A DNA stretch of 10,511 nucleotides from positions 41,550 to 52,060 of the forward strand of contig CAZGKV010000022.1 in assembly GCA_964526305.1 (NCBI GenBank), in the 5' to 3' direction. The position numbers were made by a program, and so were the translations under genes. The stretch is from an uncultured Planctomycetales bacterium. GTDB taxonomy: Bacteria > Planctomycetota > MHYJ01 > JACPRB01. Shown one piece after another: positions 7,801 through 9,464 of the stretch. The notes beneath the pieces were generated by a model. The model was not told the DNA's origin. It did no database searches and saw only the letters and a list, made by a program, of their open reading frames with translations. The number at the start of each line of letters is the position of its first letter. Position 1 is the stretch's first letter.

Positions 7801-8133
7801 CCCTCGGGAACGGCACAGTACGGGAGCGAAGGCGTCGTCGATCCCGTGACCCTGGGAACGTCGGTATCCGCCGGCGACGTAACGGCTCGATATGTGTGGC
7901 TGCGGGTTCTTTTAGACGATACCTCGAGCGCGGCCGTGAATCCGGACGCGTCGAACGTCCGGGACGTCACCGACGTTCAGGTGGGATACGGCGTGGTCCC
8001 CAGCCCGGACCCGATTCCGGCCCCGACCGGAACGCGCAACAGCGAGAAGACCTTCCATCTCGGCCGATGCGGGCTTCTGGGAATGGAAGCCCTTTTCCTC
8101 CTGGGATTCCTATGGATTCGGCGCCGCTCCTAG
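4840..8133 (+). CDS. Large secreted Kelch-repeat (beta-propeller) protein, 1097 aa, with N-terminal signal peptide and C-terminal Cys-Gly/hydrophobic/Arg-cluster sorting-signal-like tail
   Basis: GTG start at 4840 with GGGAG 8 nt upstream. The N-terminus MRCRSLGVILGGGAVVVLTLF looks like a signal peptide. Residues ~290-945 hold 13 tandem ~47-50-aa repeats with the Kelch-like consensus GHTSVAYNGYLYVIGGYDGS..L.DVQVAPINSDGTLG.WS.TT.F.T.R. A ~110-aa non-repeat domain follows. The protein ends ...TFHLGRCGLLGMEALFLLGFLWIRRRS* (stop TAG 8131-8133). Confidence 0.85.
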   Translation: MRCRSLGVILGGGAVVVLTLFRNGTPNPVLSSRGCSAPEVDRAIEKLELRGEVPPEEMRFEATKERYLFQAAFTASFSRDSAQVRVEGPDSAYPLEVSSVSSDFHPAELGAGTIRYRHREAALSALYRPTSSGVKEDIVVLSPETDLAPLLQWRLALKPGSEPRLESDGSIGIYGPHETLSGNIKIGDEKTAYLIAKAREHSPKSRLLYRFPAPVLVDAAGTKHANLARYELWRDCLVVRTEEAIRDLEYPISIDPTIVVSTTSEFNSIGNLEGMVSTAGDRVTRSPASTGRVGTWVGTTAFTTGRYGHTSVAHNGFLYVIGGYNNGTYLDNVQVAPINSNGTLGGWVVTTSLPMTIWGHTSVAWNGYLYVIGGYDGSMRRAEVQVAPINSDGTLGTWSTTTALGTARYRHTSVAYNGYLYVLGGDSGSNLNDVQVAAINADGTLGGWSATASFATVRWGHTSAAYNGYLYVIGGYDGSTYRYDVQSAPINANGTVGTWSGTTGFTTGRRAFSSVANNGFLYVIGGYQGSSPLADVQVAPINAGGAVGAWTPTTSFPSPRYSHSSVAHNGYLYVIGGFDGGYRNDIQVAPINSNGTVGSWTSTQAFTTAREGHRSVVHNGFLYVVGGSPATSSYLNDVQYSLIGVHGTVGSWSSMNSFTGTRFRHTSVAYNSYLYVIGGSDGTAKADVQVARLNEDGTVGSWSTTTALGTARYGHTSVAEKGKLYVIGGTGMSDLNDVQVAPINSDGTLGGWSSTTGFSTARYGHASAVYNGYLYVIGGFGSAYLDDVQVARINSDGSLGPWSTTTAFTTARVGHKSVVYNGYLYVIGGENGSNLGDVQFAALNADGTVGTWSTTMGYPMTSYGHAVVAQDGYLYLLGGNNSASQKDVKVAPINSEGALGCWTSINAFSSARYGHGAVSYNGFLYVVGGYDGTSYFNDVQSTTLWTPAARGYYSRQIDLGSDQPVNTILINGTSGLRGTVRLQYRLAPSGTAQYGSEGVVDPVTLGTSVSAGDVTARYVWLRVLLDDTSSAAVNPDASNVRDVTDVQVGYGVVPSPDPIPAPTGTRNSEKTFHLGRCGLLGMEALFLLGFLWIRRRS
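5716..7670 (+). repeat. Intragenic tandem array of 13 Kelch-repeat-encoding units, period ~141-150 bp (approximate bounds)
   Basis: Units share strings at the DNA level (e.g. tacaacggctatctctatgtgatcgggggata / gtgcaggtggcgccgatcaactccgatgggac recurring with small substitutions). Thirteen YV[IVL]GG cores were counted. The opposite-strand 638-aa ORF (5791..7707) is a shadow of this array. Confidence 0.8.
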
Positions 8134-9464
8134 AGCCGATCGACGTCCCCGCGGTCTTGAAGGCAGCCACGCTCTTCGCCGGATTGGCGCCGGAGGACTT
8201 GGACCGAATCGCGGCCGTCACGCAGGTGCGCCGGTTCGATGGGGACGAGGCCGTCTTTTCCGAAGGAGATCCTGCTACCTGCATGTACGTGATCGCCCAA
8301 GGGCGCGTGAGCATCGTCCGGAACGCCGCGGACGGCCAGGTCGTGAGACTGGCGATGCTCCGGATCGGGGACTTCTTCGGCGAGATGGCGATCGTGGAGT
8401 CGATGACTCGATCGGCCACGGCTCGGGCCCATCGAAAACCCGCGCTTCTCCTGGAGGTGGATCGGGGGCGCTTTCGCGAACTCCTCGGCGCGAATCCGGA
8501 CCTCTCCCTGCGCATCCTGGCTTGCGTGCTCGAGCGGCTCCGCCAGTCGAACAAGCGTGTGGTGGAAGTGGACCACGAGGCGCGGAAGTACGCCCCGACG
8601 CTTTCGGAGCGGGTCACTCGGGAATATCCGCATCCGATCGCCGTGGTCTTCCGCGAGATGGAGACGGCGGTCGACTCCTTGACCAAGCTCCAGCGGCTCT
8701 TCGAGACGATGGAGTCTTGCCTCCTCTATCTCCGGGCCGTCTGCATGGGGCTGTATCTTCGACAATCACCCGGCGCGCGGGAGTTGGATGCCGAGATCGG
8801 TTCCTCCCGCTTCGCTCCCACGCTGGGGGCTCTTCACCTCCTTGTGGGGCGCTTCCTCGATCACTTCGACAAGGGGGGTATGCCGGGGCTTCCTCAGAAG
8901 CTCCATGCGTGGTACTCGGCGAAGGAGCGGGACGCCAAGGACGTCGAGGGCATCCTGCGCGATCTCCGAAACGCCCGGAATCTTCTCAAGCACGGGTCGG
9001 AAGCCTCGCTCGACGAGCACGCGGCGGAGAAAGTTCTGGGGGAATGCGCGCCGAAGTTTCGTGACCTCCTCGAGTCGCTCTCTTTTCTACGCGACTACCC
9101 GCTCGTGTACATCCAGGGCATGGCGTACGGAGGAGGGATCTTCCGGTACACGGTGCTGAATTGCATGGGCGCGTTCCGCAGTTTTCATAGCGCGCGAATC
9201 GAAAGCGACAAGCCGTTCGAGACGGAGAAGCTCTATGTCCGGGATGGGGACGATCTTGTGCCGCTCACGCCTTGGATGGAGCTGCTCCGATGCGGGACGT
9301 GCGGGGATCGCGAGGCGGTGTTGATCCAGGTCTGGACACCGCAGGTTCTAAAGTATCTCGAATTCGCGCGCGGGCATCGTACGGAGATCAAGGAAGTGAG
9401 TCCCGCCGTGGCCAAAACCGTGACGCGATTTGTAGAAGCGGCGGAAGAAAAAGGGCGGGGCTAG
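8112..9464 (+). CDS. Cyclic-nucleotide-binding (cNMP/CAP-effector-type) domain protein with an uncharacterised ~300-aa C-terminal domain containing an R-N-x3-H (HEPN-like) motif; 450 aa
   Basis: The first ATG of the frame after the Kelch gene is at 8112 (MDSAPLLEPIDVPAVLKAATLFAGL...). It overlaps the Kelch CDS by 22 nt. TTG at 8157 is a non-overlapping alternative start. The part of the 7092..9464 ORF upstream of 8112 lies out of frame inside the Kelch gene and is rejected. Residues ~15-140 (LFAGLAPEDLDRIAAVTQVRRFDGDEAVFSEGDPATCMYVIAQGRVSIVR...IGDFFGEMAIVES..RSATARA) form a canonical cNMP-binding beta-barrel including the FGEMA(L/I) phosphate-binding-cassette-like segment. The C-terminal region is mostly helical and contains ...ILRDLRNARNLLKHGSEA... 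(R-N-x-x-x-H at 8976-8993). The stop is TAG at 9462-9464. Confidence 0.8.
   Translation: MDSAPLLEPIDVPAVLKAATLFAGLAPEDLDRIAAVTQVRRFDGDEAVFSEGDPATCMYVIAQGRVSIVRNAADGQVVRLAMLRIGDFFGEMAIVESMTRSATARAHRKPALLLEVDRGRFRELLGANPDLSLRILACVLERLRQSNKRVVEVDHEARKYAPTLSERVTREYPHPIAVVFREMETAVDSLTKLQRLFETMESCLLYLRAVCMGLYLRQSPGARELDAEIGSSRFAPTLGALHLLVGRFLDHFDKGGMPGLPQKLHAWYSAKERDAKDVEGILRDLRNARNLLKHGSEASLDEHAAEKVLGECAPKFRDLLESLSFLRDYPLVYIQGMAYGGGIFRYTVLNCMGAFRSFHSARIESDKPFETEKLYVRDGDDLVPLTPWMELLRCGTCGDREAVLIQVWTPQVLKYLEFARGHRTEIKEVSPAVAKTVTRFVEAAEEKGRG

Follow-up and report, generated by a model that had tools for sequence, protein, structure and literature searches.

A cyclic-nucleotide-binding domain joined to a HEPN-like domain in a Planctomycetales protein, a candidate nucleotide-gated ribonuclease

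We analyzed a stretch of 10,511 nucleotides from an uncultured Planctomycetales bacterium (assembly GCA_964526305.1, contig CAZGKV010000022.1, positions 41,550 to 52,060 of the forward strand), the whole of which is referred to here as the window, and focused on one of its genes, whose product, P0001, joins a cyclic-nucleotide-binding (CNB) sensor domain to a C-terminal domain that resembles HEPN ribonucleases (RNases). The gene is an intact open reading frame (ORF) that encodes, by translation, 450 amino acids (aa) followed by a stop codon; its coordinates and those of the other features are collected in Table 1. In the automatic ORF list, the frame of this gene was run upstream to a TTG codon at position 7092. 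The alignment of P0001 with P0002, its closest homolog, begins at residue 1, with M1, E8, P9, I10 and D11 being invariant, and the same 450-aa product appears in the public gene calls of two other assemblies of the same sequence. Further, the GC content at the three codon positions was gene-like in the P0001 frame (0.69/0.43/0.79), which was not the case for the overlapping frames. Based on these three results, we concluded that the ATG at 8112, and not the TTG at 7092, is the real start.

A preliminary description of this DNA, made from the sequence alone, had regarded the N-terminal 130 or so residues as a cyclic-nucleotide-binding module, and this was borne out: the Pfam model PF00027 scored above its curated cut-off, and the β-barrel fold and a phosphate-binding cassette with its glutamate and arginine are all present. 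In CNB domains, as known from CRP and PKA, these two residues contact the ribose and the phosphate of the ligand. The cassette, FGEMAIVESMTRSA, is canonical, and the pattern FGE[ML]AL.....R[ST]A is retained in ten relatives of the same composition, here termed cNMP-X, i.e., proteins joining a CNB domain to a C-terminal domain of the P0001 type. The CNB domain of P0001 was significant in Pfam, in a search of Protein Data Bank (PDB) sequences and in a fold search, and it matched PycTIR models and structures. However, the PADLOC PycTIR, effector and PycC models matched P0001 in this domain only, and the best NCBIfam sensor match, to CRP (expectation value, E, 4.3e-17), likewise covered the sensor half alone (model positions 13-138 of 214; 62 bits vs. 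a cut-off of 266). Because they are confined in this way, these matches indicate a CNB domain and nothing more specific. The domain is followed by a long helix, seen in the structural model described below, which may have a role in dimerization or signal transmission.

For the remaining 300 or so residues the preliminary description had recognized no family, and in our scans no Pfam, NCBIfam or PADLOC model reached its threshold on aa 150-450. A word-indexed homolog search with the C-terminal region returned a single relative, P0002 (448 aa, 47% identity), from a metagenome-assembled genome (MAG) of the Coriobacteriia, and the same type of search repeated with a 35-sequence profile retrieved P0001 and P0002 only. 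Nothing was found by tblastn of this region against plasmids or in metagenome scans for related loci. It was an exhaustive hidden Markov model search started from the P0001–P0002 pair, and not the word-indexed search, that made the family visible, with 715 protein clusters at E ≤ 1e-3 and 105 at E ≤ 1e-10. The domain comprises approximately 270–290 aa and is located at either end of the family proteins. An alignment of 126 near-full-length copies, with about 20% identity to P0001, was used for all conservation counts.

The domain contains the sequence R289-N290-L-L-K-H294, in which the preliminary description had seen the catalytic signature R-[NQ]-x3-H of HEPN ribonucleases, while allowing that it might have arisen by chance. 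The caution was justified as far as a single protein is concerned: approximately 0.03 such motifs are expected by chance in one protein of the composition of P0001 (an estimate), an occurrence that alone is not significant, and the looser R-x4-6-H pattern occurs four times in P0001. The chance explanation is, however, countered by the family as a whole, in which R289, N290 and H294 are among the best-conserved columns of the alignment. Arginine occupies position 289 in 108/126 copies and lysine in 15 more, asparagine position 290 in 119/125 and histidine position 294 in 112/123; the exact R, N and H are found together in 94/126 copies, and the combination [RK][ND]H in 111/126. The RNxxxH motif was also invariant in nine aligned cNMP-X sequences. 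Since this conservation extends over 126 copies at such low identity, the motif reflects more than chance. Across the family, the spacing from R to H is mostly 4–6, as in the Rx4-6H motif of HEPN domains, and the asparagine after the arginine is one of the polar residues (N, D or H) that HEPN domains have at this place. Approximately 10–25% of the family members do not have the full motif. A second conserved position, E201, corresponds in our proposed mapping to the conserved acidic residue that HEPN domains carry in helix 2, often near the motif (PMC3710099).

To place these residues in a structural context, we employed an AlphaFold model of full-length P0001 obtained with a 77-sequence alignment (mean predicted local distance difference test score, pLDDT, 94.1); an earlier two-sequence model (pLDDT 46.7) was not used. 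The model has helices across residues 164-328 and strands across 331-426, which agrees with the helical and then β-rich layout noticed previously. The proposed mapping comprises helix H1 (174-185), H2 (189-217), a helical insert (223-269), H3 (278-295) and H4 (302-328). R289, N290 and H294 lie at the C-terminal end of the 278-295 helix, just before a loop (296-301) and the next helix (302-322/328). In the published description of HEPN domains, the motif is found at the end of a helix just before the loop leading to the next one, and helices 2 and 3 are often separated by an insert (PMC3710099). On the basis of this model, the helices of P0001 would map one to one on that description, and the positions of the motif, the glutamate and the insert match the published layout, so that the structural comparison leaves the HEPN interpretation standing.

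The β-rich part, which includes the CGTC of the cysteine cluster mentioned in the preliminary description (aa 394-397), is also well conserved. P387 is present in 126/126 copies and G353 in 125/126, and C394, C397 and H422 were found in 110/124, 108/122 and 105/116, respectively; CxxC occurs in 108/126 copies and CxxC together with H422 in 101/126. Zinc-ribbon models gave weak matches in some family members. As judged from these residues, the CxxC...GH arrangement is a putative metal (Zn) site, and the Cys/His β subdomain may hold RNA or stabilize a dimer. Within the helical part, the best-conserved positions outside the motif include those of the YPxPIA signature (P173, 124/126; P175, 119/126; A177, 119/126) as well as G239 (120/126) and W241 (107/126).

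Table 1. Coordinates of P0001 features and neighboring genes in the window, and of selected genes in related loci
Feature	Position	Strand	Basis or remark
Complete gene P0001	8112..9464	+	Homolog N-termini, public gene calls, codon-position GC
CNB sensor domain, aa 1-128	8112..8495	+	Pfam PF00027, E 7.5e-21
Phosphate-binding cassette, aa 89-102	8376..8417	+	Intact, canonical; holds Glu and Arg
Long connecting helix, aa 129-160	8496..8591	+	Single continuous helix in model; position of CRP C-helix
HEPN-like helical domain, aa 164-328	8601..9095	+	Model mapped on published HEPN description; weak HEPN matches
Family signature YPHPIA (YPxPIA), aa 172-177	8625..8642	+	Start of H1; function not assigned
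E201, conserved acidic residue, proposed helix 2	8712..8714	+	E in 102/126
RNLLKH, candidate catalytic Rx4-6H motif, aa 289-294	8976..8993	+	Conservation
β-rich C-terminal subdomain, aa 331-426	9102..9389	+	Nine strands, pLDDT >95; always joined to helical domain
C394-G-T-C397	9291..9302	+	With G421-H422 (9372-9377), putative metal (Zn) site
C-terminal amphipathic helix, aa 431-449	9402..9458	+	Model; poorly conserved
497-aa 'restriction endonuclease' with domain	L016 5344-6837		NZ_CP109414.1
963-aa 'N-6 DNA methylase' with domain	L017 3922-6813		NZ_CP109471.1
ABC exporter	L005 85-2628; L010 813-3212 (-); L008 3-2360 (-); L018 3216-5723; L003 1-1293; L015		
Vault-like gene	689-2908	-	739 aa
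WD40 gene	3856-4758		300 aa
Kelch gene	4840-8133	+	1097 aa
Hairpin	8071-8092	+	Within Kelch gene end
Gene downstream of P0001	9689-10354		No family match

We also scanned 35 domain-only family sequences with sequence models at loose thresholds. HEPN_RiboL-PSP (PF18735) was the only family that recurred, in 5/35 members (best E 1e-4), and its match to P0068 covered 139 residues (aa 41-179) and profile positions 38-183 of 191. Single sub-threshold matches were obtained with Cas_Csm6_HEPN (0.011) and HEPN_Swt1 (0.056), and P0001 itself matched HEPN_Apea with an E of 0.16 at approximately aa 264-308. Among the PADLOC models, Csm6 matched one member (7.7e-5) and CARF_HEPN two (0.02). The weak matches that recur or score best are thus HEPN models, drawn from two libraries and representing several HEPN families, the rest being matches of single members to unrelated families. 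A known non-nuclease family was not indicated either, as none of the curated models in Pfam, NCBIfam or PADLOC reached its cut-off on the C-terminal region.

The proteins in which the domain occurs were compared by Pfam scans of 149 family members. Fusions to cNMP_binding, Ser/Thr protein kinase and receiver domains were found in 11, 15 and 4 of them, respectively, and further partners were N6_Mtase and Methylase_S of type I restriction–modification (R-M) systems, TPR, WD40 and HEAT repeats, and STAND-type NTPases (NACHT, AAA_16). The domain is C-terminal to cNMP-binding domains, Ser/Thr kinases, receiver domains and type I R-M methylase or specificity modules, as exemplified by P0019 (kinase) and by P0020 and P0071 (methylase modules), and in genes of Streptomyces linear plasmids that are annotated as restriction endonuclease or N-6 DNA methylase it makes up the C-terminal portion. 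In P0019 it directly follows the kinase (kinase aa 54-261, domain 279-547), which is the order seen in Ire1 and RNase L, whereas in P0066 it precedes the kinase. It is N-terminal in P0078, with NTPase matches at 335-473, and in the TPR proteins P0015 and P0068. Effector or output domains typically occupy such positions, and for HEPN domains both an N-terminal effector role in NACHT proteins and an association with R-M systems are already known. Tandem copies are present at the N-terminus of P0011 (aa 1-322 and 406-719) and P0034, proteins of 1694 and 1841 aa, an arrangement that fits an enzyme needing two motifs. In public records, relatives are named 'cyclic nucleotide-binding domain-containing protein' or CRP/FNR regulators.

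Four related loci were identified in GTDB genomes, all of them in Myxococcota MAGs, and the surroundings of cNMP-X genes revealed several recurrent partners. A gene for a HEAT–cold-shock-domain protein (HEAT-CSD) overlaps the cNMP-X gene or lies adjacent downstream of it in loci L006, L008, L010/L011 and L018, and in P0016 (L009 3789-6197) the cNMP-X protein and HEAT-CSD are fused in a single chain. Locus L008 (2406-6441) contains an operon of cNMP-X, HEAT-CSD and a class III cyclase (Guanylate_cyc), with overlaps of 4 nucleotides each, and is the one case in which a signal source is visibly linked to cNMP-X. The cyclase has 627 aa, with an N-terminal DUF5939 and an SRPBCC-like region. An orthologous ABC exporter of approximately 800–850 aa is located near cNMP-X in L003, L005, L008, L010/L011, L015 and L018, and a small stand-alone cNMP protein in L003, L005, L015 and L018. 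In the L005 exporter, an insertion of about 250 aa appears to divide the ATP-binding domain (MsbA model 14-439, CydD model end 693-816). In L018 (856-7280), cNMP-X, HEAT-CSD, the exporter, a 158-aa cNMP protein and a membrane protein with no known family are co-directional, and the latter recurs beside another cNMP-X gene in L019.

Further neighbors were noted in individual loci. In the Coriobacteriia MAG that encodes P0002 (L003, 1321-5116), the homolog comes after genes for the small cNMP protein and for an HD protein akin to the HD end of CCA-adding enzymes, and it is followed by RlaP ('RNA repair pathway'), a pol-beta-type nucleotidyltransferase, and then by an IS transposase; P0002 is the only relative followed by RlaP. 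The HD protein and RlaP could act in RNA-end repair or in signal turnover. A gene for a Suv3-like DExQ-box helicase lies directly upstream of cNMP-X on the same strand in two related Myxococcota MAGs (L013 6839-9271 and L014). RNA as the substrate is suggested by the cold-shock partner and by the HD and RlaP enzymes of L003, all of which point in that direction.

The combination of a cNMP sensor and a HEPN effector put forward in the preliminary description is therefore supported by motif conservation, HEPN-like topology, the effector-like placement of the domain in the family, the association of relatives with RNA-binding partners and with a cyclase, and weak HEPN matches, the last all sub-threshold, and we propose with moderate confidence that P0001 is a cytoplasmic HEPN RNase under the control of a cyclic mononucleotide. 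Its CNB domain would bind a 3',5'-cyclic mononucleotide, with cAMP or cGMP as the default guess, and the helix at 129-160 would pass the ligand-induced change, like the C-helix in CRP, to an effector of about 290 aa. This effector would consist of a HEPN-like core, with R-N-x3-H and the glutamate, permanently fused to the Cys/His β subdomain. By analogy with HEPN enzymes, two protomers would join their Rx4-6H motifs into a composite RNase site, with E201 assisting, and RNA cleavage would be metal-independent and leave 2',3'-cyclic phosphate ends. The geometry of the composite site would be determined by the binding of ligand in the CNB dimer, presumably with activation rather than inhibition as the outcome, and the resulting RNA cleavage may serve a stress- or defense-type role.

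Several results weigh against this proposal. No curated HEPN model reached its cut-off, the best case being P0068 against RiboL-PSP with 21.4 bits vs. 28.4. Three full-length fold searches were filled with CNB matches and gave the C-terminal domain no three-dimensional match to a solved HEPN structure, and a profile search of PDB sequences with the family alignments returned no HEPN protein and no meaningful C-terminal match; a match to 'LIKVRNRHH' of PDK4 (E 0.14) in that search was judged to be due to chance. The fusion protein P0016 lacks the N and H of the motif and therefore, like some other members, is probably catalytically inactive. The preliminary description had found no cyclase in the window, and indeed none was present there, among the recorded families within 10 kb on either side (locus L001) or in three unannotated neighbors that were scanned, so that the signal in this genome must be supplied by a cyclase whose gene lies outside this region. 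No cyclase was detected among the scanned neighbors in L012 and L013 either, and the window locus, L012 and L013 share only the cNMP-X gene, their neighbors not being conserved. Finally, the frequent presence of the ABC exporter hints at a signaling or regulatory rather than a toxic role.

This last point also favors the alternative that the C-terminal domain is HEPN-derived or HEPN-like without being a nuclease. Here, the conserved R/N/H/E pocket and the Cys/His subdomain would serve for the binding of a partner or a ligand, and P0001 would act as a cNMP-dependent regulator or adaptor, e.g., of the ABC exporter or of HEAT-CSD. The orthologous exporter beside cNMP-X in six loci, often with the small cNMP protein, would suit such a function, as would the members without the full motif, P0016 among them, and the window offers no toxin–antitoxin or defense context. 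Some HEPN families are, moreover, non-catalytic (PMC3710099, Table 1). Such families, however, typically lose Rx4-6H (PMC3710099), whereas in the present family the motif ranks with the most highly conserved features, in proteins of widely differing architecture, and the fusions to restriction endonucleases and methylases, together with the N-terminal placement on STAND NTPases, are typical of effectors. On balance, we consider a regulator or adaptor without nuclease activity unlikely.

Two other proposals concern the CNB half of the protein. If P0001 were specifically an anti-phage effector of a Pycsar-like system, an infection-triggered cyclase would activate the HEPN RNase, which would abort the infection; this proposal is about biological role and does not conflict with the gated-RNase mechanism. 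The match to PycTIR and the cyclase operon of L008 bring Pycsar to mind, but the PADLOC matches do not extend beyond the generic CNB domain, for which CRP and PKA are equally good matches, and the L008 cyclase, with its extra N-terminal sensor-like domains, is more like a signaling cyclase. Together with the absence of a cyclase within 10 kb of the P0001 gene, neighbors such as Kelch, WD40, DoxX, vault-like and kinase proteins, and no match to defense models among the four window proteins scanned, this makes a specific Pycsar-like role quite improbable in our view. A CRP/FNR-family transcription factor is what the source records suggest for P0014 and P0153, named 'CRP/FNR family cyclic AMP-dependent transcriptional regulator', and the NCBIfam CRP match might seem to agree. 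That match, however, ends with the sensor half and remains far below the cut-off, no helix-turn-helix model matched the C-terminal region, and the C-terminal 290 aa are a different, widely shared domain. With no winged helix-turn-helix, a CRP-type identity was rejected as scarcely credible.

The gated RNase that we favor can be compared with several known systems. Like Csm6/Csx1, the CARF-HEPN proteins of type III CRISPR, P0001 has an N-terminal receptor for a nucleotide signal and a C-terminal domain that is probably a HEPN RNase, with an expected ligand-controlled composite Rx4-6H site in a dimer. In contrast, Csm6/Csx1 sense cyclic oligoadenylates by a CARF Rossmann domain and P0001 would sense cyclic mononucleotides by a CNB β-barrel. 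P0001 also carries a fixed Cys/His β subdomain on the HEPN core, and there is no cas-family match nearby (no cas-family model matched the six window proteins scanned, and none was recorded for the flanking genes). With the Pycsar effectors PycTIR and PycTM it shares a CNB-type sensor fused to an output, and a parallel is seen in the one relative in an operon with a class III-type cyclase (L008); P0001 differs in its HEPN-like output, which is neither TIR nor transmembrane, and in having no adjacent cyclase. P0001 would thus work like Csm6/Csx1 and the Pycsar effectors, being a member of neither group. CRP/CAP has the same succession of CNB domain, long helix and output domain, but the output of P0001 is not a winged-helix DNA-binding domain. 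Unlike HEPN-MNT (type VII toxin–antitoxin) pairs, P0001 has no recognizable minimal nucleotidyltransferase antitoxin beside it, the downstream gene in the window having no family match.

As regards the effector half, the nearest curated sequence model to the P0001 family is RiboL-PSP-HEPN (PF18735), with all its matches below the cut-off and with the YPxPIA and SxGxW signatures and the CxxC...GH subdomain of the family lying outside the match. In a 2013 survey of HEPN domains, RiboL-PSP-HEPN was described as distantly related to AbiD and AbiF. A further likeness exists with Ire1 and RNase L, in which a kinase is combined with a KEN/HEPN domain and the HEPN RNase is regulated by an attached sensing or dimerizing module, as would be the case in the P0001 family, where 15/149 proteins carry a Ser/Thr kinase; the attached module of P0001 is a CNB domain instead. 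KEN is a circularly permuted HEPN domain (PMC3710099), and no significant sequence match was found between the P0001 family and Ire1/RNase L (E 1.8).

In line with the preliminary description, which knew of no established architecture of this kind, we found no model, database name or paper for the combination of CNB and HEPN, our coverage of the literature being incomplete and an earlier mention being possible. Within the same incomplete coverage, no cAMP- or cGMP-activated RNase was found, and the outputs of CNB receptors met in our searches were transcription factors, kinases, channels, and TIR or membrane effectors, with no RNase among them. We therefore regard P0001 as a new sensor–effector pairing, built on a HEPN-type family that has no curated model. 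If the proposal is correct, direct RNA cleavage would be added to the outputs of cyclic mononucleotides, P0001 being the cyclic-mononucleotide counterpart of Csm6. It would also provide a name and a testable activity for a domain found in at least 715 protein clusters, which are now annotated by their other domains only or, wrongly, as CRP-family regulators. The kinase fusions would be relevant to the question of how the Ire1/RNase L architecture arose, and a compact RNase under small-molecule control could serve as a tool.

A broader, tentative interpretation, which we hold to be possible rather than probable, is that the C-terminal module represents a new and widespread HEPN clade (a helical core with a Cys/His β subdomain) acting as a general RNase output of bacteria, plugged into CNB domains, Ser/Thr kinases (as a counterpart, in bacteria, of Ire1 and RNase L), receivers, STAND/NLR-like NTPases and R-M modules. 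Under this interpretation, cNMP-X together with HEAT-CSD, the unusual ABC exporter, the small cNMP protein and sometimes a cyclase would constitute an undescribed signaling or defense system with an RNase gated directly by cNMP.

With regard to the surroundings of the gene in the window, the ATG at 8112 lies within the upstream Kelch gene, whose last 22 nucleotides overlap the start of the P0001 gene, and because of this overlap the pair may be co-transcribed. The Kelch protein has many Kelch repeats, a hydrophobic N-terminus, and at its C-terminus a hydrophobic stretch ending in RRRS that resembles a sorting-signal tail. Just upstream of its gene lies the one for the WD40 protein. A hairpin of 9 base pairs followed by TTTTCCTCCT, 20 nucleotides before the ATG of P0001, could be an attenuator; terminator-like hairpin sites, this one included, were no more numerous in the scan of the window than in shuffled sequence, and no Rfam family was detected in the window. 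Including 10 kb on each side, the locus encodes ABC permeases, a solute-binding protein, the vault-like, DoxX, WD40 and Kelch proteins, a 216-aa protein without a family, a Ser/Thr kinase with TPR repeats and a sigma-70-like protein. A kinship of the vault-like gene with an SPFH gene beside the homolog in L012 was rejected (E 1.4). The vault-like protein matched MVP_shoulder (E 4.9e-32), Vault_3 (5.3e-8) and Vault_4 (0.011), and resembles the eukaryotic major vault protein.

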